Positions 7,211 to 56,880 are shown, counted from the stretch's first letter. The stretch: 64,000 nucleotides of DNA from an uncultured Candidatus Micrarchaeota archaeon (GCA_963787745.1 CAWBEB010000005.1:2260-66259); one strand, 5' to 3'. A program made the numbers and translations. Notes: generated by a model from the sequence alone, not told the origin.

Positions 7211-7996
7211 CTACTTCAGGCCGAAGAACTTCCTTATCCCGCCGCTGCGGCTGGGGGCCTGGGCGGACCCTTCGGATTCAGCACCGGCCTTTAGGAGGTA
7301 GGACCTGCAGAGGTCATCTATCGCCAGGGAGAAGAGTGATGTCCTGTTGAGCAGGTAGGCGGGGGTGTGCTTCGCCTCGCTCTCGTCGACGCTTTTCTCC
7401 TCGGGCACCATTGCATAGGCGACGTCGCCGTAGAGCTTCTCTATCGTGTCCTCGCCGAGCTGGTACTTGCCCTCCTTGACCCTGTTTATCACCAGCTTGT
7501 GGAGCAGGTGGTACTTTAGGTATGATTGCGAAAGCCTCTGGGCGCCCCTTACGGCAGTCTCCTCTGGGGTCGTTATTATCAGCGCCTCGTTTATGAGCTT
7601 GATTGCCGGCTCTATCTCCGACCCGGGAGGCGTGTCGACTATCACGAAGTCGAAGTCGCTCCTTGCGATCTCGGAGTAGAACTTGGAGATCTGGTCGGCG
7701 GAGGCCTTGGTTGCGGCGCCTTCGCTGCCCGCGGTCACATAGTAGAATCCGCCGGACGGATAGAGGACAAGAACGTCCTTCAAGCTGGCCTCGCCCGATA
7801 TGACCTCGGAGTAGCCCTGGCCCTCTAGGCCCGAGCCGAGCAGAAGCCCGACGCTTGGGTTGGGGACGTCCGTGTCTATGAGCAGCACATCGTAGCCTGC
7901 GGCTCTTAGCGCCGCAGTAACGTTTATCGATACTATAGTCTTGCCGACTCCACCCTTCGGTGAGGCCGTCACGATTATGTAGGGTTTCTTGGCCAT
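7211..7996 (-). CDS. MinD/ParA-family P-loop ATPase (archaeal MinD-like), paralog of 52244-53071
   Basis: Deviant Walker A SPKGGVGKT, then LLIDTD, NPSVG and IVDTPPG. The C-terminal GGIRKFFGLK resembles an amphipathic membrane-targeting helix. Confidence 0.85.
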   Translation of the reverse strand: MAKKPYIIVTASPKGGVGKTIVSINVTAALRAAGYDVLLIDTDVPNPSVGLLLGSGLEGQGYSEVISGEASLKDVLVLYPSGGFYYVTAGSEGAATKASADQISKFYSEIARSDFDFVIVDTPPGSEIEPAIKLINEALIITTPEETAVRGAQRLSQSYLKYHLLHKLVINRVKEGKYQLGEDTIEKLYGDVAYAMVPEEKSVDESEAKHTPAYLLNRTSLFSLAIDDLCRSYLLKAGAESEGSAQAPSRSGGIRKFFGLK

Positions 7997-12390: not shown

Positions 12391-13419
12391 TTAACCAGCG
12401 GAGTATACAACGTAGCCAGAGGGATAGGAACCGCTTGATCCACTCGGGGTTACTGTGACGGTGTATGTGCCCGGGCTCTGGCCCGAGCATACATAGATGT
12501 AGGCATATCCGGAGTCTTCCTGATTTTCAGCTGTGGTGCATGTACCAGAAGATGGGGTCACGCCGACACTGGACATTGAGTAGACAACGCCGCTAAGCAT
12601 TATGAATGTGTACTGGCCCGTATCCCCAACCGAATAGGTGAAGGTATAGGGGGTGGTGGTACTGGAGCCCCTGTTGTTGCGGACGTAGGTGATCGCATTG
12701 TTGACCCCTACTCCCGCTATCGCGAATGCTGCCGATCCGGTTTGGGTGGCAGAGCATGTGGGGCTTGCCGATTGGTATCCTATGTCCGACCAGAAGTCCG
12801 GATATTCATCTGATGTCCACGAACTGCCGAATGAACCCTGGTAACCTACGGTGGTGCAGAAGTACCAGTTTGAGCCTGATGGAAGGGTGGTGGATATGGA
12901 ACTGCCGCTGGTGGTGGCCCCGTTTTGGCTGTAGGTTATCGGAGGTGAGGATGTGATGGCGACCTGGGTGGCCTTTGCGTTTATCGACCCTATCGGACTT
13001 TCTATCGTTTGCCCATTTTGGGTGTATTCTATCCATAATGTTCCTGTGAAAGAAGCACCCAATACATTTGAGGCGAGCGGGCAGGAGAAGTTTAGCGTGG
13101 CCGAGCCTCCTAGGTTTATTGTTGAGGCCTGGACACCGCTCCAACTTGCCGGAACGCCGGTGCCAGTGGCACAGCCGGTCTGTACAGAAGAAAGCAAGGT
13201 TACCTGAGATCCGACGGTTGCTGAAAGAAGACCGTTTGACGCCATTACTGGAGTCTTGCAGAGAAAGCCGGACTTTGCAACGCAGCTTCCTGAGGCAACC
13301 GCCCCCGAATTGAAGTTGAAGACGCCCAATGAAAAGAGGACGGCTATCACTACCGCTATGATGAGGATAGTCCACCCGTAGGTCATCAGGTACTCCATTG
13401 CTGACTGGGCCTTTGCCAT
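12391..13419 (-). CDS. Archaeal type IV pilin-like protein (class III signal peptide)
   Basis: The N-terminus MAKAQSAMEYLMTYGWTILIIAVVIAVLF is the QSAMEYL...GW prepilin-type signal. It is followed by a Cys-containing Ser/Thr/Gly-rich beta domain. Confidence 0.75.
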   Translation of the reverse strand: MAKAQSAMEYLMTYGWTILIIAVVIAVLFSLGVFNFNSGAVASGSCVAKSGFLCKTPVMASNGLLSATVGSQVTLLSSVQTGCATGTGVPASWSGVQASTINLGGSATLNFSCPLASNVLGASFTGTLWIEYTQNGQTIESPIGSINAKATQVAITSSPPITYSQNGATTSGSSISTTLPSGSNWYFCTTVGYQGSFGSSWTSDEYPDFWSDIGYQSASPTCSATQTGSAAFAIAGVGVNNAITYVRNNRGSSTTTPYTFTYSVGDTGQYTFIMLSGVVYSMSSVGVTPSSGTCTTAENQEDSGYAYIYVCSGQSPGTYTVTVTPSGSSGSYPSGYVVYSAG

Positions 13420-46756: not shown

Positions 46757-47134
46757 TTATTCAACAACTATTATTTTCTCTGTCCCCAGCCTTTTGAAAT
46801 CCTTATCCTGAGTCACGAATGTCTCTCCGTTGGAAAGTGCCGTAGATACTATGAGGAGGTCGGCCTCGCTAAGTTTCAGTCCGGATGCCTTTAGTTTTTT
46901 ATACAGTTCGCCGGCCACCCAGGCAGCTGACAGATCCATATTGTATACCCTTACCCTTTCGAACAGAGTTATAAGGAGCTCTTTGTCGGCATCACCTATG
47001 CCCTTCACTAGCTCGTAACCAGTTATGGAAGCTATTCCTATGGCCCCAGAGCCTTGATGCTTATCTATGATGCCGGCAGCTGTTTTTGAGCCATTTAGAT
47101 AGTCTATCATTATGTTGGTGTCAAAGACCGCCAT
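46757..47134 (-). CDS. vapC: PIN-domain toxin VapC
   Basis: MAVFDTNIMIDYL...ITGYEL...DLLIVSTAL...FVTQDKDF carries the PIN acidic residues. Confidence 0.85.
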   Translation of the reverse strand: MAVFDTNIMIDYLNGSKTAAGIIDKHQGSGAIGIASITGYELVKGIGDADKELLITLFERVRVYNMDLSAAWVAGELYKKLKASGLKLSEADLLIVSTALSNGETFVTQDKDFKRLGTEKIIVVE

Positions 47135-47645: not shown

Positions 47646-48816
47646 CAGTTAGGTATATAGCTAACCCAAAAAGTGTTACAACTTCCACTACTCTGAACTT
47701 TTGATAAAGTTGTTATCCTTTCTCATCGTCTTCCAAGAGACGACAATGTTGGAAAACGACTCCAACATCCTGGGAGAACTGTACAGAAACTGCAAGGATG
47801 GACGGGAGAAGATAAGGTATGAGGCACTTTACGCCGTAAGTAGAGGTCGCAGCGTAAAGGATGTTGCAGACTTCATAGAAGTTGAAGAATCCACAGTCTA
47901 CGATTGGATAAACAAGTGGATTTTCGACAAGAATATCCGTGATAAACCAAGGAGCGGCAGACCTTCGAAAATCACGAAAGAGGACGACAAAGAGATACGC
48001 CGCCTTATCGACGAAAATGACCCAAAGAAGTACGGGATAAATGCATCTTCCTATACAACAAAAGAACTGCAACTGTACTTTGCAGAATACAGAGGCAAAT
48101 TCATCGACGAAGAGACGTTCAGGATTCATCTTGTCGGGACTGGTGCACACTATGTAAAGGCGCAACTTCGATACAAAGAAGGCGACTTGAACAGGCAGAT
48201 CGAATTCGCACAGAATCTCGTGTTTCTCCTGAAGAACGGATTCTTCACAAAGATACTGTTTGTCGACGAAATGTCAGTATCGACATCCGCACGAAATGGA
48301 TACGGATGGACATACAACCAGAGACTTGTCGTTGATGCACCGCAGAATCATGTTGACAGGGCAAACTACTTCGGCGCAGTCGAAGTCACAGAGGGAACGA
48401 TAATTGAAACGGTGAGGAAATCTGCAAAAGCACCGTCATTCTTGCACCTTCTTCACAAGATAGAACAGTATTACCCTGACGACAAAATGCTGATAGTGAT
48501 GGACAACGGTGCGGTTCACCATAGTTGGAGGGTTGGCAAGTTCTTCAACGAAAGAGACAACATGAAACCTCTTTTCCTGCCGCCATACTCTCCTGACCTC
48601 AACCCAGAGGAGTATGTACATAACGTTTTGCGAGATAAACTTCTCAATAACCGCAACTTCAAGAGCACCAAACAGATCGGATTCGTGATCGACCGCTTCG
48701 TCAAACAGATGACGGCAGAGACGGTCAGGAGTATTGCGACATTGATACCAATAGAGGCGCTACTCTCTGCGCAAATCCAGTTGTGAGACTTTCAAGGAAA
48801 GCTATAAAAGATTCTG
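47646..48816 (+). mobile_element. IS630/Tc1-mariner-family insertion sequence (~1.17 kb)
   Basis: Single transposase ORF. Imperfect ~36-bp terminal inverted repeats: 47646-47681 against the reverse complement of 48781-48816, about 23/36 by hand alignment, with both ends starting CAG and sharing TATAGC. No clean TA target duplication was seen. Confidence 0.55.
47746..48786 (+). CDS. IS630-family DDE transposase
   Basis: N-terminal HTH region (GRSVKDVADFIEVEESTVYDWINKW; PRSGRPSKIT). DDE_3 core: LFVDEMSVS, IVMDNGAVHHS, LPPYSPDLNPEEYVHNVLRD. Confidence 0.85.
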   Translation: MLENDSNILGELYRNCKDGREKIRYEALYAVSRGRSVKDVADFIEVEESTVYDWINKWIFDKNIRDKPRSGRPSKITKEDDKEIRRLIDENDPKKYGINASSYTTKELQLYFAEYRGKFIDEETFRIHLVGTGAHYVKAQLRYKEGDLNRQIEFAQNLVFLLKNGFFTKILFVDEMSVSTSARNGYGWTYNQRLVVDAPQNHVDRANYFGAVEVTEGTIIETVRKSAKAPSFLHLLHKIEQYYPDDKMLIVMDNGAVHHSWRVGKFFNERDNMKPLFLPPYSPDLNPEEYVHNVLRDKLLNNRNFKSTKQIGFVIDRFVKQMTAETVRSIATLIPIEALLSAQIQL

Positions 48817-49246: not shown

Positions 49247-49747
49247 ATGAACGTTAAAACGGTAGAGTTGCACTTCGACAAGACCGAGCCCGGGGTCCAG
49301 ATAACGGACATAACAAGGCAGGTGGACCACTCGGTGATCGACTCGAAGGCAAAGGACGGCATAGTGATAGTTCACGTCAGCTCGCCCCGTCTGAGCATAA
49401 GCACCATGGACTACGAGGAGGGCAACATACAGGACCTAAAGGATGCGCTCTCAAAGCTCGAGCAGAAGCAGTCCGACAAGACCAACAGCATCTACGGGCA
49501 CAGCGTCGGCGGGCTGGGGACCGCCGTGAGCTTCATAGAGCACAAGGGCAAGCACTTAGGCCTGCCGAAGGCGCCGGGCGACAGGAGCATAATGCACGCC
49601 ATACTCGGGCCGAGCATAACCATACCGGTGAAGGAGAATAGGACGATGCTGGGCAAGTGGCAGCAGATACTGCTCTGGGACTTTGGGAAGGTCTCTGAGG
49701 TAAAGAGGGTCGTGGTGCAGATAATAGGGGACTTTTATACTGAGTGA
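49247..49747 (+). CDS. YjbQ/UPF0047 family protein (copy 1)
   Basis: ITDITRQV...GIVIVHVSSPRLSISTMDYEE...HAILGPSITIPVKENRTMLGKWQQILLWDF...VVVQIIG. A TATA-like box (GCTTTAAATAGC) lies about 30 nt upstream. Confidence 0.75.
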   Translation: MNVKTVELHFDKTEPGVQITDITRQVDHSVIDSKAKDGIVIVHVSSPRLSISTMDYEEGNIQDLKDALSKLEQKQSDKTNSIYGHSVGGLGTAVSFIEHKGKHLGLPKAPGDRSIMHAILGPSITIPVKENRTMLGKWQQILLWDFGKVSEVKRVVVQIIGDFYTE

Positions 49748-50196
49748 TTGTCATGGGAGTAAAAACTGCCGAGATTCAGGTTGAGAAGAAGGAGGAGGAC
49801 CTTTACGTTACGAAGATAACAGGGGAGGTGCAATCGGCCATAAAGAGCTCGAACTTCAAAAGCGGCATCGCCACGATATTCATAGGCTGCACCACCGCCA
49901 GCATAAGCACCATGGAGTACACGCCGGAGAGCATAAAGCACATGAGGGAGGCGCTCGAGCGGGTCGCGCCGTCGGACGGCCACTACCTGCACAACACCTC
50001 GGTGGGCGACATAAACGGCTACGGCGCCGACGACAACGGGAAGAGCCATGTAAGGGCCGCGATAATGGGGCCGAGCATAACCATACCGTTTAGCGAGGGC
50101 AAGATGCTGCTCGACAGCGGCCTCGAGGTCGTGCTGCTGGACTTCGACCTGATAAAGAGGAAGAGGAAGGTAATAGTGCAGCTGATAGGAGAATAG
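49744..50196 (+). CDS. YjbQ/UPF0047 family protein (copy 2, tandem paralog)
   Basis: ITGEVQSAI...GIATIFIGCTTASISTMEY...AAIMGPSITIPFSEGKMLLDSGLEVVLLDFD...VIVQLIG. It overlaps copy 1 by 4 nt. Confidence 0.75.
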   Translation: MIVMGVKTAEIQVEKKEEDLYVTKITGEVQSAIKSSNFKSGIATIFIGCTTASISTMEYTPESIKHMREALERVAPSDGHYLHNTSVGDINGYGADDNGKSHVRAAIMGPSITIPFSEGKMLLDSGLEVVLLDFDLIKRKRKVIVQLIGE

Positions 50197-50220: not shown

Positions 50221-50230
50221 TTTTATAATT
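50221..50230 (+). promoter_or_regulatory. TATA-like box of the surface-structure operon
   Basis: TTTTATAATT lies about 30 nt upstream of ATG 50260. Confidence 0.4.
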
Positions 50231-50259: not shown

Positions 50260-52242
50260 ATGAAGGTTGACCAGTTTGTGACACTTGCAGCGTTAGCTTC
50301 GTTGCTTGTCCTAGCGCAGCCATTCGCCGGGTCCGCCACCCAGGTGAACGCCAGCGTGACAGTGATATGCCCCTTCGGCCTCTCCCTTTCGATGCTTTCC
50401 ACCTATCCGCGGGTTCCTATCATCAGCGTCAATTACACCGCGACGGCGACATCGGCATGCGCAGTGGGGAACCTCACCGGCAGCTTCAAGGTCCTCAACT
50501 CCAGCAGCAATGCCATAGTCTACCAGGAGCCGGTTGGCATACTTGGGAATGGGCACCCGCAGCTGCACGGAAGCGTCTCGTTCAGCACGTCGAACATGGC
50601 CAACTCCAGCTACACCGGTCTGCTATCTCTCGACGTCGGACCGTACACCGCTAGCACCCAGAATACCTTCGTGCTCCTCAATTACGCCAACGTCCTCATA
50701 ACCCAGTTCAGCGCGCCTCAGTCAGTTGGCCTAGGGGCTGCGCTTCCATTCTTTGTATCGCTGCAGAACGTGGGGCAGGTGGCATCAAGCCCGATAACGC
50801 TCTCGCTCCATGTCGCAGGCCCGCAGCCCTTCAATACGGTCTATGTATTTTCCGCCCTTTCGCCGGGCCAGAGCTCCAACACCACGATAGCGCTTGCGAA
50901 CGAAACGGGAGTGGCAGGTTCTTATAACGCGACGCTGGTGGCGACCTACAACTCGCTTGGCCAGACGGAGAACTCGACGCCGGCGACGGTTTCCTACTCT
51001 GTGACCGTGCCGCAGCAGAGCATCCCGGTCTCCACCTCTACGGGAGGCCTGCCGGTCAACGTGACCAACCTGCCGCCGAACCTTGTGTTCACCTACATGC
51101 CCCTTATAATCTCGGGCCAGCCCGGCACAATCGAGCAGAGCCAGATAGGGCTCAGGAACACCGGGCCGCTGGAGGAGCAGATAGGCCTCGGCGTTCCCGG
51201 AGTCTATTCTGGGCTGCTGGGTCTTTCATCCTACAGCGTTTCGCTGGCTCCGAATGAGAGCACGACGGTGCAGGTCTTCCTGAAGCCGAATCTGACGCTG
51301 CAGACAGGCGTATACACGGTGCCGATCAACGTCTCCGTGGTCTACCAGGGAGGCGGGATGGCAAACATCACCGAGTATATCACCTTCAGCCTTTTCAGGC
51401 AGAACGCCACCCAGCCCTCCATTTCGACGCAGATGTACCGGATAAACTCAACAGGAACAGCAAGTGGTGTCATATCGATTATCGCGCCGCGCGGAAGGGA
51501 CATAAGCAACACGACCCTCGTGCAGTGGATCCCGGCATCTGTGGCGGCGAACCTCTCAGACCTCAGCTTCTACGGCCTGCCCACGGTCATAACATTGGAG
51601 AACGGGACTTACAAGGTCGTCTCCTACATAGGCAACCTGCCGAGGAACCAGACGCTCTACGAATACTATTCCATAAAGGGAGCCATTGACCCGCAGCTCA
51701 TGCTAAGGTCCCAGTATGAGTTCTACACGCTCTCGCAGACCAACTCCTCCAGCATACTCAGGCTCGCCGGCATAAGCGCCCCGACCGTTACCAGCAATTC
51801 AATAGGGATCATAACGGTGTCGGTCCTTTACACAGGAACCAAGCCGGCGAACGTCAGCTTCTATGCCGTTCCGCCTCCGCAGATAACCCTTCAGAACTAC
51901 ACCCAGAATGCGAGCGCGGTGCCCAACGAGCTCCTTGTCAAGCAGTTCAAGATAATCGGGCACTCGAGCAACGGCACTTTCATACTGCAGTTATACATAA
52001 GAACATTGGGCGCCAACCTGAGCTACGGGATACCGATACTGATAAACCCTCCGCCGCAGTTCAAGCCAAGCCAAAGCACCCCGCTGATCCCATTTTATCT
52101 CCGAGTAGCAATATTTATAGTGTTAATCGTCATAGTAATAGCGTTGCTCAGGAGCCGCTTCGGAGGAAGGCAGACATATTCCTCAGAGAGGGCCGGGCGG
52201 TTGGTAAGGATTAAGGAGCAGATAAAAAGAGAGAGAGAATGA
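50260..52242 (+). CDS. Type I membrane glycoprotein with CARDB/Ig-like repeats (surface operon gene 1)
   Basis: Sec signal MKVDQFVTLAALASLLVLAQPFAG. CARDB-like segment ITQFSAPQSVGLGAALPFFVSLQNVGQVAS...ALSPGQSS. 26 N-x-S/T sequons by my hand count. C-terminal TM VAIFIVLIVIVIALL plus a short basic tail. Confidence 0.65.
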   Translation: MKVDQFVTLAALASLLVLAQPFAGSATQVNASVTVICPFGLSLSMLSTYPRVPIISVNYTATATSACAVGNLTGSFKVLNSSSNAIVYQEPVGILGNGHPQLHGSVSFSTSNMANSSYTGLLSLDVGPYTASTQNTFVLLNYANVLITQFSAPQSVGLGAALPFFVSLQNVGQVASSPITLSLHVAGPQPFNTVYVFSALSPGQSSNTTIALANETGVAGSYNATLVATYNSLGQTENSTPATVSYSVTVPQQSIPVSTSTGGLPVNVTNLPPNLVFTYMPLIISGQPGTIEQSQIGLRNTGPLEEQIGLGVPGVYSGLLGLSSYSVSLAPNESTTVQVFLKPNLTLQTGVYTVPINVSVVYQGGGMANITEYITFSLFRQNATQPSISTQMYRINSTGTASGVISIIAPRGRDISNTTLVQWIPASVAANLSDLSFYGLPTVITLENGTYKVVSYIGNLPRNQTLYEYYSIKGAIDPQLMLRSQYEFYTLSQTNSSSILRLAGISAPTVTSNSIGIITVSVLYTGTKPANVSFYAVPPPQITLQNYTQNASAVPNELLVKQFKIIGHSSNGTFILQLYIRTLGANLSYGIPILINPPPQFKPSQSTPLIPFYLRVAIFIVLIVIVIALLRSRFGGRQTYSSERAGRLVRIKEQIKRERE

Positions 52243-52243
52243 G

Positions 52244-53071
52244 ATGAGAAAAGGATCTTATGTGATACGGATTTCTTCCCAGAAGGGGGGTGTCGGGAAG
52301 ACCACGATTGCGGTAAATATCGCGGCGGTCCTTAGCGCCTTGAACTACAAGGTCCTTCTCGTCGACGCGGATTACTCGAATCCGAGCGTGGGGTTTCACC
52401 TCGGGCTTGAGCAGGCGAGCCGGGGCTACATAGACGCTATTAAGGGAAAGACCAACCTCAAAGAGATCATCGTGCCACACGGGCCGAGCGGCATCCATGT
52501 CCTTCCGGGGAGGCTGGCGTCCAGGGTCAAGACCCCGAGCGCGGAGGAGATGGTGGACCTCTACAGGAAACTGCGCGAATTGAATTACGACTTCGTCCTG
52601 GTGGACACTGCGCCAGGTCTCCTGCCGGACAGGGACTTCGCCGACCTCAAGAGCTTCGACGAATCCATAATAGTCACGACGCCGGAGATGTCCTCCTGCA
52701 CCAGCGCCATAAGGCTGGCCCACGTCTACGACGAGATCGGCCTCAAGCACTCGCTCATAGCCAATAGGATAAAGAACAAGAAGTACGAGGTGAGCATGCA
52801 GGAGATAGAGGAGTCCTACGAAGGCACGGTGACCGGCATGATACCGGAGGATGAGGTGGTGCCGATCAGCATAGCCGAGCACATACCGGCGTACCTCCTC
52901 AACCAGAGGAGCGGCTTCTCAATCAGCATAGGCAAGACCTCAAGGAGGTACGGAGCCAAGATCGGTGCGGGATACGACATCGGAATGGGCGGATCCGGAA
53001 TCCTTGCGATGATCCTCTCCTGGCTTGGCTTTAGGAGAAGGAACAGGATAGCGGAGTCGGTAAAGGAGTAG
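52244..53071 (+). CDS. MinD/ParA-family P-loop ATPase (surface operon gene 2), paralog of 7211-7996
   Basis: SSQKGGVGKTT, LLVDADYSNPSVG, LVDTAPG and IPAYLLN are shared with the 7211-7996 product. C-terminal amphipathic/hydrophobic segment GILAMILSWLGFRRR. The start is 1 nt after the previous stop. Confidence 0.85.
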   Translation: MRKGSYVIRISSQKGGVGKTTIAVNIAAVLSALNYKVLLVDADYSNPSVGFHLGLEQASRGYIDAIKGKTNLKEIIVPHGPSGIHVLPGRLASRVKTPSAEEMVDLYRKLRELNYDFVLVDTAPGLLPDRDFADLKSFDESIIVTTPEMSSCTSAIRLAHVYDEIGLKHSLIANRIKNKKYEVSMQEIEESYEGTVTGMIPEDEVVPISIAEHIPAYLLNQRSGFSISIGKTSRRYGAKIGAGYDIGMGGSGILAMILSWLGFRRRNRIAESVKE

Positions 53072-55435
53072 GTGGCGAGCGTGGACAAAGACTCGGCAGA
53101 GGCGGCCGCGATATTTGTCATTGTAATCGCTGCACTCGGAGTGCTGAACATGGGGGTCGCAATGGGCGCGAACGTCACCAACTCCACGACAAGCAACACC
53201 TTCAATTCAATAAGCTCATCCTCCAGCACAGTCAACACAAGTACAATCTCGACATCCAGTACTGTAAACACTACCTCTACAACTAGCATAGTCGACACAA
53301 TGACGTCCAGCACTGTAAACACGACTTCCACAATCAACATCTTCAACACTACCACTACGCTGAACGGCACGACATCGAACATACCATCCCTGATACCAAG
53401 GTCACCGGGCATCCCCATCCTGAACGGAACAGGAAACACGGTAAGAGGTCCATCCACGGCGTTGATAAACGCAAGGGGAGGATTCGCCAGGACCAGCCTT
53501 GCAGTAAGATCGAGGGGCGCCAACCTGAACATAAGCACCGGATCGGTGCTATACGGAGTCAGGGTTAGATTCAAGAATAGCACCGTGACGAGGTTCAACG
53601 TCAGCGTGGCCAATGGAACTCAGGTGCCGGCAATGGCGCCGGCACCTAGCGCGCTGGTCTACCAGTACATACAGATAAACGACACGGTCTACAACACCAC
53701 CAATTCGGTGGATCCCTACATATCAAACGTGACCTACAACTTTCAGGTCCAAAGCGGATGGCTCGCCCAGCAGGGAATCGCCCCGCAGAACATAACCCTC
53801 CTCAAGTACATAAACTCGAGCCAGAGCTGGATCTCGCTCCAGACTTCGGTAGTGGGCTTCAACTCCAGCGATTTCTTCTATTCGGCGGTTTCCAACTCGT
53901 TCTCCACCTATGCGATAACGTATCCGGGCCCGGCGAACGCGGCAGTGACCGGGCAGAACAGCATAACCCTGTTGCTTTCCTCCCAGCCCTCGTTCAACTA
54001 CTTTTGGGCTTTCGCGGTCAATGCGCTATCAGGAGCCAGGGCCGGAGTTGGATTCAATTGGACTTCGACCTCCAATGCCTTTCTCACGGTCAATGCACCC
54101 AACAATGCCAACGCCATAGTGTCGACCGGCTGGTCGACCAAGCCATCAGCGACCTACAACAACCCGGCTGCCACCGCCAACACCGGAAACATGGTTATCG
54201 TCGGGGTGGCGGCCAATGTGGTGGAAGCGAACAGCAAGGTATTCGTCGGGAACGGGCTGAAGGTCTCTTCGAACAGCCTGACTTTCACCGTCGCCACGGC
54301 AAACAGCCTTGTGATAGTCATGTCGGGGATATCCAACGGCCTTAATGCAACCACCAACTGGCTCACGGTCAATTCCGCGCTCGCAAACGTTGTGTATGGA
54401 AACAGCCTGACGAATGTGTGGGCTGGCATTAGGATCTTTAACTCCCTCCCGGCAGGCACCTACAAGGAGAGCACTAACGCGATAAACACGAATGCGATAA
54501 TAGCCACCTCCATTTTCGTCTTCCCCACCTATACGGTTACTTTCAACGACATACCCGGGACAGGAAGCATCGCGACCAACGGGGTCAGCCAGAAAACCGC
54601 GAACGCGGTCGCCGGGCTACTTGGAACTGGGACCATAAACGCCATAGCCCCGAATGCCAACTTCATCTTCAGCAGCTGGACCGTAAAAAATGCGGTTAAC
54701 ACAATAGTCGCCTCGTCCACATCATCCAACACTTATCTTACAGTAGAGGGGAACTCTGTTGTTACCGCCAACTACAACGGCCTGACCACCTTCCTCGAGA
54801 CTGGCCTTCCGGGCGGAACAACCTGGAACGTGGTCTACAATGGAATACTCAGCTACAACTCGCTTTCGCCCAACAATGCAAACGTGGTATTCAATACTAT
54901 CTGGCTAGGGAGCGCCTCCTACACCGTGAACAGCCAGGTGGTTGGGGGGAGCACCTACATCCCCAGCCCGGCATCCGGAACAGTAGTGGTGGGCAACGGG
55001 ATCAGCGTCGCGTTCTCCCTGGCCAGCTGCTTCGTATCAGTAAGCAACACTTTGGTGAATTTCGGATCCATAACTACGGGCTCCAATGTTCCTACGCAAA
55101 ACGCGGTGACCGTGACAGACAATAGCGGAAGCGTCGCCGCCAACATACTCATAGAAGGAGGAATAGGAAACGTGATAAACCCGGCAAACGACATATGGAA
55201 AGGGACGAGCGCGGGCAACACGATCGGGATATCGAACACGGTATGGAGCGCATCCCTCAACACCGCCTATGGAAGTGCAACCAGGGTAAGCAACACCCCG
55301 GTCGACACGCAGATACAGATACCCTCTCCCGGAGGCGGCTCGGCATCGAACAACATATACCTGGGCATGGGGATTCCAAGGGGCACGCCGGCGGACACCT
55401 ACACCACGAATGTGGTGATAGAGATCACCTGTTGA
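53072..55435 (+). CDS. 787-aa signal-anchored surface adhesin-like protein ending in the Cys-bracketed domain (surface operon gene 3)
   Basis: GTG start directly after the previous stop, preceded by AAGGAG. N-terminal anchor AAAIFVIVIAALGVL. S/T stalk with three SSTVNT-type repeats (DNA TCCAGYACWGTMAACAC at about 53222, 53255 and 53306). InlB-B-repeat-like YTVTFNDIPGTGSIATNG...FSSWTV. Thermopsin-type FLETGLPGGTTWNVVYNG. The last 135 aa are paralogous to the 55590 product. Confidence 0.65.
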   Translation: MASVDKDSAEAAAIFVIVIAALGVLNMGVAMGANVTNSTTSNTFNSISSSSSTVNTSTISTSSTVNTTSTTSIVDTMTSSTVNTTSTINIFNTTTTLNGTTSNIPSLIPRSPGIPILNGTGNTVRGPSTALINARGGFARTSLAVRSRGANLNISTGSVLYGVRVRFKNSTVTRFNVSVANGTQVPAMAPAPSALVYQYIQINDTVYNTTNSVDPYISNVTYNFQVQSGWLAQQGIAPQNITLLKYINSSQSWISLQTSVVGFNSSDFFYSAVSNSFSTYAITYPGPANAAVTGQNSITLLLSSQPSFNYFWAFAVNALSGARAGVGFNWTSTSNAFLTVNAPNNANAIVSTGWSTKPSATYNNPAATANTGNMVIVGVAANVVEANSKVFVGNGLKVSSNSLTFTVATANSLVIVMSGISNGLNATTNWLTVNSALANVVYGNSLTNVWAGIRIFNSLPAGTYKESTNAINTNAIIATSIFVFPTYTVTFNDIPGTGSIATNGVSQKTANAVAGLLGTGTINAIAPNANFIFSSWTVKNAVNTIVASSTSSNTYLTVEGNSVVTANYNGLTTFLETGLPGGTTWNVVYNGILSYNSLSPNNANVVFNTIWLGSASYTVNSQVVGGSTYIPSPASGTVVVGNGISVAFSLASCFVSVSNTLVNFGSITTGSNVPTQNAVTVTDNSGSVAANILIEGGIGNVINPANDIWKGTSAGNTIGISNTVWSASLNTAYGSATRVSNTPVDTQIQIPSPGGGSASNNIYLGMGIPRGTPADTYTTNVVIEITC

Positions 55436-55589
55436 AAGGCTGAACGGCCCGTTGGAAAAGTGCTACCTAAAAAGTGACTTGCGCTTAGAAAATGTGCCTG
55501 AAAGTATCTCTGAGCCGAAGAAAATAGGAATCAATTTAAAGGTGGTGGCTTTTTAAGCGTTTCTTTGCTATATTATCAAAGGCGATCAG

Positions 55590-56156
55590 ATGGACTTGAA
55601 GAGAATGATTTTGGGAGGCATGCTCACCATGGCGACGGTGGCTTTCCTGTTCGGCGCGCTGCTGAACCTGGGAGGCCTAATATCGTTTGGTGCTGGCACT
55701 ACCACCAACACGATTGGAGGAACCGTAGGGGTGCAGGCGGTCTGCGCCATCACCACAGTCAGCAACACGGCAGTGAACTTCGGATCTCTGGCTCCTGGAA
55801 CTAACGTGGGAACCCAGAACGTGGTAACGCTTACTGACAGCGGCGGAAACACCGCGTCTAACATACTAATAGCAGGAGGGCTTGGAAGCCTAAGCCCATA
55901 CAACGGGATATGGCTGGGCACCAGCGTTGCCAACCAGATAGGCATATCCAACACAGTTTGGAGCGCCACTTTGAACACAGCGTACGGCAGCGCAACCAAG
56001 GTTACTAACGCTTTGGTGATAACGCCGATACTCTTAACTGCCCCATCACAGGCAAACCCTTCCACATCAAACACAGTATTCCTTGGTATGGGAGTGCCGA
56101 GCGGGACAGCGGCGGACACATACACCACAAACATAGTGTTGGAAACAACGTGCTGA
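55590..56156 (+). CDS. 188-aa secreted protein consisting of signal peptide + Cys-bracketed domain (candidate fibre subunit; surface operon gene 4)
   Basis: Signal MDLKRMILGGMLTMATVAFLFGALL. The mature part CAITTVSNTAVNFGSLAPG...IGISNTVWSATLNTAYGSAT...ADTYTTNIVLETTC aligns along its whole length with 55028-55432. It has its own TATA-like box, CTATATTATC, about 20 nt upstream. Confidence 0.6.
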   Translation: MDLKRMILGGMLTMATVAFLFGALLNLGGLISFGAGTTTNTIGGTVGVQAVCAITTVSNTAVNFGSLAPGTNVGTQNVVTLTDSGGNTASNILIAGGLGSLSPYNGIWLGTSVANQIGISNTVWSATLNTAYGSATKVTNALVITPILLTAPSQANPSTSNTVFLGMGVPSGTAADTYTTNIVLETTC

Positions 56157-56166
56157 GCGGATTCCA

Positions 56167-56880
56167 ATGAATAGGACCTCGCTTGCCGTTCTTTCTCTTT
56201 TTTCTTTTCTATTCCTTTTTTCTTCCATTTCGACAGCGCAGCTTGGCGAAGTCGCAGGCCAGCCGCACTTCAATGTAAGCATAGGCGGCAGCAACTCGAT
56301 CCAGATAACAGTAATAAACGAGGCGACATACCCGCTTCCGGTTAGGGTCATACTCCCCTCGCTGACAAGCACCGACGCCAATGCCATAACGCCGGACCTT
56401 ACAGCGAATCCGATGGTTGCCACGATACCGGCAGGAAAGGAACTCAACATAAACCTCACTGTCAGGATGCCGGGGGGCACCAACAAGCCGGGCTATTCCT
56501 GGAGCGGCATACTTCAGGTCGTTACCGCACCCAATTCGACAAGCGGAGGGTCCACGGGCGCCACGATAATCGAGGGAGTCGCAAAGATAGTCAGCATAAG
56601 CGCGATAAAGTCCACGTTCAACATCTATGATTACCTGATACCGGCCGTCATTGTGATAATCGTCGTTGCGGCCATTGTTGTCGCATACAAGAAGGGCATG
56701 TTCGCAAGGAAGAAGAAGGCGCAGCCGACAGCGGCCAAGACCAAGGCGGCGGCAACTAGGAAGGGTAAGAAAGTGGCGGCTAAGTCAAGAAGGGCTAGAA
56801 AGGGCAAGAAGAGCGGTGCCGGCAGGCCGAGGGGCAGGAGCAAAAGGACCACAAGGCCGCGCCGGCGCAGCAGGAGGTAG
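56167..56880 (+). CDS. Signal-peptide Ig-like protein with C-terminal TM and 63-aa polybasic cytoplasmic tail (surface operon gene 5)
   Basis: Signal LAVLSLFSFLFLFSSISTAQ. Beta-rich ectodomain (IQITVINEATYPLPVRVILP...ELNINLTVRMPGG). TM LIPAVIVIIVVAAIVVAY. The tail has 30 K/R in 63 residues by hand count. Confidence 0.6.
   Translation: MNRTSLAVLSLFSFLFLFSSISTAQLGEVAGQPHFNVSIGGSNSIQITVINEATYPLPVRVILPSLTSTDANAITPDLTANPMVATIPAGKELNINLTVRMPGGTNKPGYSWSGILQVVTAPNSTSGGSTGATIIEGVAKIVSISAIKSTFNIYDYLIPAVIVIIVVAAIVVAYKKGMFARKKKAQPTAAKTKAAATRKGKKVAAKSRRARKGKKSGAGRPRGRSKRTTRPRRRSRR

Follow-up and report, generated by a model that had tools for sequence, protein, structure and literature searches.

Several archaea build surface fibres from β-sandwich subunits that are thought or shown to join by strand donation, namely Sulfolobus threads (Saci_0406/0405; PMC9715654), Pyrodictium cannulae (CanA/CanX; bioRxiv 10.1101/2024.12.30.630787), haloarchaeal tafi (TafA/C/E/F; PMC11821415) and bundling pili (AbpA/AbpX; PMC9245690). 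The papers on threads and tafi both call polarity, anchoring and any assembly factor unknown (PMC9715654, PMC11821415), and the cultured micrarchaeon ARM-1 touches its host via unidentified fibrous structures seen by transmission electron microscopy (PMC8784108). Here we describe a five-gene locus (g1-g5) in a stretch of 64,000 nucleotides (nt) from an uncultured Candidatus Micrarchaeota archaeon (GCA_963787745.1 CAWBEB010000005.1:2260-66259; hereafter the window, with positions counted from its first letter), which an earlier reading by a model, the original prediction, had taken for an operon that couples a MinD/ParA ATPase to a candidate surface fibre. The locus is real and phylum-wide, and it most likely builds a fimbria-like fibre or an adhesin stalk at the cell surface, a new form of donor-strand-type archaeal fibre. 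The specific reading that we favour, with a probability of roughly 0.5, is a Sec-dependent, non-type-IV, donor-strand-type surface assembly of Micrarchaeota that is built on a pilin-like domain, here called D. Relatives of g1, g3 and g5 are referred to as the G1, LARGE and G5 families.

The D domain is shared by g3 and g4: residues 651-787 of g3 match residues 50-188 of g4 with 61% identity (E = 4e-47), which bears out the common terminal domain noticed in the original prediction. With g4 as the profile, a HMMER search across 1.84 billion representatives (E ≤ 1e-3) gathered a family of 253 clusters at 50% identity and three architectures: a signal peptide followed by a single domain (170-200 amino acids (aa)), two domains in tandem (~315-340 aa) and a domain at the extreme C-terminus of large secreted proteins. 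The last of these was found in 45 large proteins, so the pairing of a small subunit with a large protein ending in the same domain, proposed from this one locus, is general. Nearly all members finish with ...Y[TS]Q[NT]IxIENSC-COOH, and the end of the domain is the exact C-terminus of the protein in 229 of 281 domains. Searches of Pfam, NCBIfam and PDB sequences with D-family profiles returned no significant match; D is a new, unannotated family without a Pfam or NCBIfam model, and a literature search found no paper on it. The family is essentially confined to Micrarchaeota, and the close homologues of g4 sit on Micrarchaeota contigs. Typical D-G5 pairs or full clusters also turned up in four loci from metagenome-assembled genomes with other labels (L014, L018 and L026, 'Marsarchaeota'; L034, 'Gammaproteobacteria'), which probably reflects mis-binning or mislabelling and not true occurrence outside Micrarchaeota.

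D is predicted to be a β-sandwich of ~137 aa whose nearest folds are donor-strand pilins. The AlphaFold2 model made with a 56-sequence alignment reached a predicted local distance difference test score (pLDDT) of 90.7 and carries the fold search, an eight-sequence alignment of g4 having given an unusable model (pLDDT 57.7). Among the top 35 Foldseek matches in PDB, almost all were donor-strand fibre subunits (probability 0.9-1.0), including the FimA rod, FimF/G, CsuA/B, CfaB, PapE/A, Caf1, SafA and the Pyrodictium cannula subunit 9h8b; the sole other recurrent match was the N-domain of GH123 enzymes. The structure search suggested in the original prediction thus led, for the g4 D model, to donor-strand pilins with the Csu/SCPU type among them. 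In sequence profiles the SCPU family of Pfam matched 3 of 56 D members, with a best E value of 0.024, and DUF4402 was a weak match in a few members.

The original prediction had also named TasA/camelysin and DUF1102 as candidate families. A matrix fibre of that type, from the bundling-pilus or tafi family, would account for the Sec-type signal peptides, the small secreted β-sandwich subunit and the larger accessory protein, and tafi likewise have an anchor protein with a C-terminal transmembrane (TM) helix (PMC11821415). We nevertheless regard it as very improbable: Peptidase_M73/TasA and DUF1102 were both unmatched among the 56 D members at E ≤ 1, TasA and AbpA structures were absent from the top 50 Foldseek matches of the D model, and genes for a SipW/TafD-type signal peptidase or a DUF5305 protein were not found in or adjoining the cluster.

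In small D proteins, the ~14 residues before the first Cys follow the alternating-hydrophobic pattern of a strand, V(-10) A(-8) V(-6) V(-4), with hydrophobic fractions of 0.8, 0.7, 0.8 and 0.9 at these positions across 106 single-domain proteins. AxA signal-peptide sites lie 3-6 residues to its N-terminal side. Tandem proteins keep the strand in both domains, the second copy starting a few residues past the C-terminal Cys of domain one. In 81 LARGE proteins, by contrast, the region before the Cys has no consensus and its hydrophobicity is flat at 0.3-0.5, and the D domain of g3 accordingly lacks the conserved strand of the small subunits. A strand integral to the fold in cis should persist in every class, so its presence in small but not in large proteins suggests strand donation; this is also the distribution that characterizes chaperone-usher systems, in which an alternating-hydrophobic extension is found in the polymerising subunits but not in the tip adhesin.

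Two further features of the sequence add to the fold. The first and last Cys of D are kept or missing as a pair, both being present in 259 of the 281 domains, neither in 18 and only one in 4. All 18 domains without the pair are accompanied by an intact second domain that has both, and each of the eight listed is the first domain of a tandem protein (L008, L011, L012, L013, L029, L035 and others among such Cys-less first domains). This pattern indicates an intradomain disulfide that joins the first and last residues, rather than a bond between subunits. Mean-field direct coupling analysis of the 281 domains likewise showed the Cys-Cys coupling; the rest of its signal consisted mainly of gap artefacts and was not used. 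In addition, D appears to be almost never N-glycosylated: 12 N-x-S/T sequons were observed against 209.5 expected from composition, a ~17-fold depletion (D alignment, LARGE and tandem proteins), and 46 of 56 members of the D alignment have none at all. Sequons are enriched 2.0-fold in the G1 ectodomain and 2.5-fold in the G5 ectodomain and are neutral in the rest of the large proteins; the window's own proteins hold 26 (g1, exactly the number counted by hand in the original prediction), 20 (g3), 4 (g5) and 0 (g4). Since D is exported, it meets the glycosylation machinery and yet seems to be selected to stay bare, as tightly packed interfaces would be, and this avoidance within otherwise heavily glycosylated proteins is a clean signature.

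The large D protein of the window, g3, is composed of a signal peptide, a stalk rich in Ser, Thr and Asn, β-rich modules and the C-terminal D domain. The labels first attached to its modules, InlB-B-repeat-like and thermopsin-type, were not confirmed: Pfam gave no match to g3 at E ≤ 1 and NCBIfam instead identified a PGF-pre-PGF domain (residues 168-283, 4e-14), while the motif GLPGGTTW occurs in a single copy at residue 578. Its LARGE relatives span 500-2678 aa, are hypervariable and conserved at their termini only, and in some cases contain DUF2341. Most large proteins have an ordinary cleavable signal peptide and no other anchor, which makes D their only conserved means of retention on the cell. 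We propose that g3 is a distal adhesin, and the locus is a candidate for how hypervariable giant adhesins stay on the cell without other sorting signals.

Retention by D could also be achieved with no fibre at all, if D were a non-polymerising docking module that attaches giant adhesins and small D proteins to the g5 ectodomain or to g1, comparable to cohesin-dockerin pairs or SLH anchoring. The limits of conservation in the large proteins, a cleavable signal peptide and D only, agree with this, as do the weak Foldseek scores, the constant position of G5 after a D-domain gene and the order G1-MinD-LARGE-G5 in cultured Ca. Micrarchaeum A_DKE, which has no small D gene in between. We consider docking unlikely; it leaves unexplained the tandem proteins and the rows of as many as five small D genes, the N-terminal alternating strand that is specific to small proteins, and a set of nearest folds made up of donor-strand pilins and not of generic immunoglobulin (Ig) domains.

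Under the donor-strand reading, g4 is proposed to be the shaft subunit and g1 the membrane anchor or base of the assembly as well as the partner of MinD. The g1 protein has a signal peptide, an ectodomain of multiple Ig-like domains that bears its sequons, a TM helix (residues 612-630) and a conserved cytoplasmic tail of 30 aa. Its earlier description as a CARDB/Ig-like type I membrane protein holds for the Ig-like architecture and the topology; CARDB itself stayed below threshold in g1 (E = 0.0016) and likewise in 5 of the 25 members of the G1 alignment. The mature N-terminus of the family carries the motif [ST][IVL]xAxVxVxCPF, with a hydrophobic fraction of 0.9 at positions -8, -6, -4 and -2 in the 25 members, and in hhalign it matched the strand before the first Cys of D, together with that Cys, over 29 columns (probability 44%, E = 2.3e-4). 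This segment is a candidate donor strand. In the tail, R644 is invariant and Y640 nearly so among the same members, both lying within a basic, helix-like motif that may be a MinD-interacting peptide.

The g5 protein was predicted to combine an Ig-like ectodomain with a TM helix and a polybasic tail; the three parts are indeed present (residues 25-148, 156-174 and 175-237, respectively) and are preceded by a signal peptide. Across an alignment of 35 G5 sequences, the mature N-terminus QLGEVAGQP is nearly invariant and the last Ig strand, GVAKI, carries an invariant Lys (K140 in g5). Pfam matches were to Cep192_D6 (24/35) and OCRL ASH (17/35, best 1.2e-5), and also to CFAP65 Ig, HYDIN and MSP; against PDB, the family profile found CFAP65 (2.9e-4), HYDIN (4.6e-4) and OCRL ASH chains. 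From these matches the ectodomain is assigned to the ASH/MSP-type Ig domains of the PapD-like superfamily, ASH/MSP domains being remote homologues of PapD/FimC (PMC4094338). Profile-profile comparison of D with G5 gave nothing significant. We propose that g5, tethered to the membrane, serves the D domain as a chaperone-like or anchoring partner. The tails of the family (56689-56877 in g5) measure 20-90 aa and consist almost purely of Lys, Arg, Ala, Ser and Thr, often ending in RRRRR; they vary greatly in length, a few members have none, and binding to lipid, nucleic acid or MinD is possible.

The g2 protein belongs to the MinD/ParA family, as originally predicted, with a deviant Walker A motif (KGGVGKT, residues 14-20) and a basic amphipathic C-terminus that resembles a membrane-targeting segment (residues 252-275) and is kept in 30 orthologues. 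It matched AAA_31, CbiA and ParA in Pfam, and its nearest PDB structure was the archaeal MinD 1HYQ (E = 1e-22), with 1ION also among the closest and FleN and FlhG structures among the matches. Because its score against TIGR01969 (E = 3e-36, 124.8 bits) lies below the cutoff of 201.75 bits, we class it by these profiles as MinD-like and not as the equivalog. The window contains a second MinD paralogue (7211-7996, minus strand, 261 aa), which is 37% identical to g2 and has a short basic amphipathic C-terminus; no G1-, D- or G5-like genes adjoin it, so it may be a MinD for housekeeping or division.

MinD/ParA genes are found in appendage loci such as those of Tad pili (TadZ/CpaE), in flagellar operons (FlhG) and as BcsQ. 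The original claim that an embedded MinD/ParA has no obvious precedent therefore does not hold for appendage loci in general and stands for donor-strand-type fibres only, for which, to our knowledge, a linked MinD has no precedent. Compared with the positioning ATPases TadZ/CpaE, FlhG/FleN, BcsQ and Haloferax MinD4/MinD2, g2 shares the deviant Walker A, the C-terminal segment and a gene embedded among those for surface structures. It differs in that its cargo would be a Sec-exported, ATP-independent assembly of donor-strand type instead of a type IV or flagellar machine, in its closer relation to archaeal MinD with a score below the equivalog cutoff, and in its presumed partner, the cytoplasmic tail of a single-pass membrane protein.

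We examined conservation of the locus in one genome per GTDB species, using a 12-sequence subset of D and searching six-frame open reading frames (ORFs) with jackhmmer profiles of the five window proteins. This returned 53 loci, almost all labelled Micrarchaeota and including A_DKE, with ARM-1 found separately; since the search relied on Y[TS]Q[TN]Ix[ILM]ENS, the sample is weighted toward one part of the D family. In 25 of 29 cases the gene right after G1 was MinD, in 22 of 28 the gene after MinD encoded a LARGE or D protein, and a D-domain gene directly preceded G5 in 44 of 46. G1 and MinD both lay within 10 kb in 25 of the 45 G5 loci, most of the remainder being cut by contig ends. Gene order recurs in ~25 independent Micrarchaeota contigs, which argues against a chance arrangement, and the synteny of MinD with these genes, which the original prediction had singled out as a check, is conserved phylum-wide. 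Of the computational outcomes named there as refuting it, the two that were examined, by fold search and by gene order, both came out in its favour. Small D genes form arrays of up to five; the A_DKE orthologues are Micr_00918-00921, and the D-G5 pair of ARM-1 is ARM1_0671/0672.

In other genomes the G1-MinD(-LARGE) and D-G5 modules are swapped or divergent. This fits the 154-nt gap between g3 and g4 and the second A/T box of the window, and we conclude that the locus comprises two modules, g1-g2-g3 and g4-g5, each probably under its own promoter (Table 1). The remaining junctions are tight (1 nt for g1/g2, 0 nt for g2/g3 and 10 nt for g4/g5), with AAGGAG directly 5' of the GTG of g3. The layout agrees with the original prediction in the five plus-strand ORFs, their spacing and a TATA-like box belonging to g4. 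The split into two modules, the N-terminal strand of g1 and the assignment of g5 with its coupling to D-domain genes were not part of that prediction. Its exclusion of a type IV pilus holds: the leaders of g1 and g3-g5 are Sec-type with AxA-like sites, and the locus has neither class III signal peptides nor PilB/PilC-type genes nearby.

Table 1. Genes and sequence features of the locus in window coordinates.
Feature	Position	Strand	Details
TATA-like box TTTTATAATT	50221-50230	+	~35 nt 5' of g1 ATG 50260; read from the sequence; putative promoter of the g1-g2-g3 module
g1 (G1 family)	50260-52242	+	660 aa
g1 mature N-terminus ATQVNASVTVIC	50332-50370	+	alternating-hydrophobic strand ending at invariant C37
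g1 cytoplasmic tail	52150-52239	+	motif Y640-x3-R644...L..IKE.IKR
g2 (MinD/ParA-family ATPase)	52244-53071	+	275 aa
g3 (LARGE family)	53072-55435	+	787 aa, GTG start
D domain of g3	55028-55432	+	residues 653-787, C653...C787
TATA-like box TTTTTAA	55550-55556	+	~37 nt 5' of g4 ATG 55590; read from the sequence; putative separate promoter of the g4-g5 module
g4 (D family)	55590-56156	+	188 aa
g4 N-terminal strand	55695-55742	+	residues 36-51
g4 D domain core	55743-56153	+	C52...C188, after Sec-type signal peptide and N-terminal strand
g5 (G5 family)	56167-56880	+	237 aa

The neighbourhoods also bear on whether the locus could be an envelope or division module, in which g1 and g5 would form pseudo-periplasmic stalks, D would be associated with the S-layer and MinD, with FtsZ close by, would couple envelope remodelling to division. 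In six loci (L026, 11765-12901; L006, L019, L033, L038 and L049) G5 is immediately followed by a convergent FtsZ gene, and in five more (L031, L032 and L045-L047) a different FtsZ paralogue is encoded within ~5 kb. In A_DKE, the supplement of PMC8975820 lists Micr_00288-00294 as AglB, a 669-aa hypothetical protein, a 249-aa MinD/FlhG, a 5095-aa ConA-like lectin protein, the S-layer gene Micr_00292, a 709-aa and a 175-aa protein; the 669-aa, 249-aa and 5095-aa set is a paralogous third module that resembles G1-MinD-giant-protein, placed between AglB and the S-layer gene. Micrarchaeota moreover have a pseudo-periplasm of 20-25 nm beneath the S-layer (bioRxiv 10.1101/2021.04.28.441871). We hold an envelope or division role to be decidedly unlikely: neither FtsZ nor an S-layer gene stands beside the locus in the window, the hypervariable giant proteins resemble adhesins in their lectin-type modules, and the separate MinD paralogue of the window could serve division. 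S-layer identity itself was rejected: all five window proteins were unmatched by S-layer N-terminal domain models (PF05123 type), and the A_DKE S-layer protein, SLP_Mh, is a separate 979-aa protein of the PF05123 family.

If the locus does encode a donor-strand-type assembly, the following can be inferred on how it polymerises, which way it is oriented and what g1, g5 and MinD do. Copies of g4 would polymerise head-to-tail, each donating the strand before its first Cys to the next subunit, in the manner of chaperone-usher pili, Sulfolobus threads, tafi and cannulae. The g3 protein, lacking both this conserved strand and a membrane anchor after cleavage of its signal peptide, would be placed at the distal end as an adhesin, where it would accept a strand and be held solely via its C-terminal D domain. 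At the proximal end, the N-terminal strand of g1 would plug the fibre, and its glycosylated Ig-like stalk of ~570 aa, TM helix and tail would anchor the structure in the membrane. The g5 protein would hold D domains or help to assemble them in the manner of a chaperone, or else serve as another anchor, and g2, bound to the membrane by its C-terminal segment, would engage the g1 tail and so position or cluster the assembly, plausibly at the site of contact with the host.

Several results weigh against this reading. The Foldseek scores of the D model are modest (best E = 2.7e-3 and none at E ≤ 1e-3; TM-score 0.37-0.55, the upper value on target length), so the Ig-like pilin fold predicted for D is to be taken as resemblance and not as family membership. 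DSSP assigned no strand to the segment before the first Cys in the g4 monomer model. Profile-profile comparison by hhalign related D to the E. coli pilins FimA/I/F/G/SfmA with a probability of only 2%, G1 to pilins with 0.9% and G5 to FimC/SfmC with 12%, the last pair sharing a superfamily only; the match of the G1 motif to D, at 44%, is confined to its 29 columns. In ARM-1 and a few other loci, neither MinD nor G1 occurs within 10 kb of the D-G5 pair, and the FtsZ genes adjoining the cluster in 11 loci leave open a division-related role for MinD. Finally, the third G1-MinD-giant module of A_DKE has average transcript values only and no proteome signal in the supplement of PMC8975820.

Among known systems, chaperone-usher pili offer the closest structural parallel to D, whose predicted fold is nearest to FimA/F/G, CsuA/B, PapE, CfaB and Caf1. 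In both, subunits have an N-terminal alternating-hydrophobic extension and an intradomain disulfide, the adhesin carries a pilin-type domain at its C-terminus (g3, as in FimH and PapG), and small paralogous subunit genes stand in a row with a PapD-like-superfamily Ig protein encoded alongside. The micrarchaeal locus differs in having no sequence homology to Fimbrial/SCPU families or FimC, no usher-like gene in or around the cluster, no two-domain chaperone and no outer membrane. Moreover, g5 has a single Ig domain, is anchored in the membrane and ends in a polybasic tail, the disulfide of D joins its first and last residues, and the locus adds a type I membrane protein with a donor-like strand and a MinD ATPase. 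A bolder version of our reading, which we consider doubtful, is an usher-free archaeal counterpart of the chaperone-usher pathway, in which g5, tethered to the membrane and of the PapD-like superfamily, would be the chaperone capping D subunits on their exit from the Sec pore, g4 the shaft, g3 the adhesin with its C-terminal pilin domain and g1 a strand-donating transmembrane terminator and anchor, with g2 reading the g1 tail so that the fibre is built or clustered at the host contact. If true, archaeal donor-strand fibres would have their first known machinery for assembly and positioning, and host attachment in Micrarchaeota its molecular basis.

The archaeal fibres share with the locus Sec (or Tat) export without type IV machinery and β-sandwich subunits of the strand-donating kind. 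Cannulae supply the 9h8b match; tafi include a tip protein with a lectin-like domain and the C-terminal-TM anchor TafF, for which a layout of tip, core and TM anchor has been proposed (PMC11821415); and in threads a cap donates a strand but has no acceptor site itself (PMC9715654), a role close to that proposed for g1. The D family has no detectable sequence relation to any of these. Threads are heavily glycosylated, whereas D is depleted of sequons; the pilin-like domain is at the C-terminus of g3 but at the N-terminus of TafC; and the micrarchaeal locus lacks a dedicated TafD/SipW-type signal peptidase. Nor do the loci of the known fibres contain a MinD/ParA gene: the text on tafi mentions no ParA, MinD or ATPase (PMC11821415), the paper on threads lists no gene of this kind for the cluster (PMC9715654) and the text on cannulae mentions no ATPase (bioRxiv 10.1101/2024.12.30.630787).

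The locus offers, in a single conserved pair of operons, candidates for the nucleation, anchoring and placement of archaeal donor-strand fibres, in the form of a pilin-like family, an anchor with a donor-like strand, a partner from the PapD-like superfamily and a MinD. Two Micrarchaeota in culture, A_DKE and ARM-1, carry it, and for the biology of DPANN archaea it is a concrete candidate for the fibres between ARM-1 and its host.

Elsewhere in the window, a 342-aa protein encoded at 12391-13419 (minus strand) has a class III signal peptide, with the leader MAKAQSAMEYLMTYGW / MAKAQSAMEYLMTYGWTILIIAVV, and no Pfam match; the gene set of this genome thus extends to type IV pilin-like proteins. 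A jackhmmer match between this protein and the D/LARGE profile was put down to profile drift and set aside. Just upstream of the locus are a PIN-domain gene (46757-47134, minus strand) and an IS630/Tc1-like DDE_3 transposase with helix-turn-helix domains (~47746-48786, plus strand), in a stretch of low GC content (0.43-0.46 versus ~0.55); further 2-kb bins of low GC content correspond to tRNA genes (24347, 32398 and 43870). Directly upstream of g1 lie two tandem genes of the UPF0047/YjbQ family with a 4-nt overlap (49247-50196, plus strand), which are kept only in the closest relative (L001).

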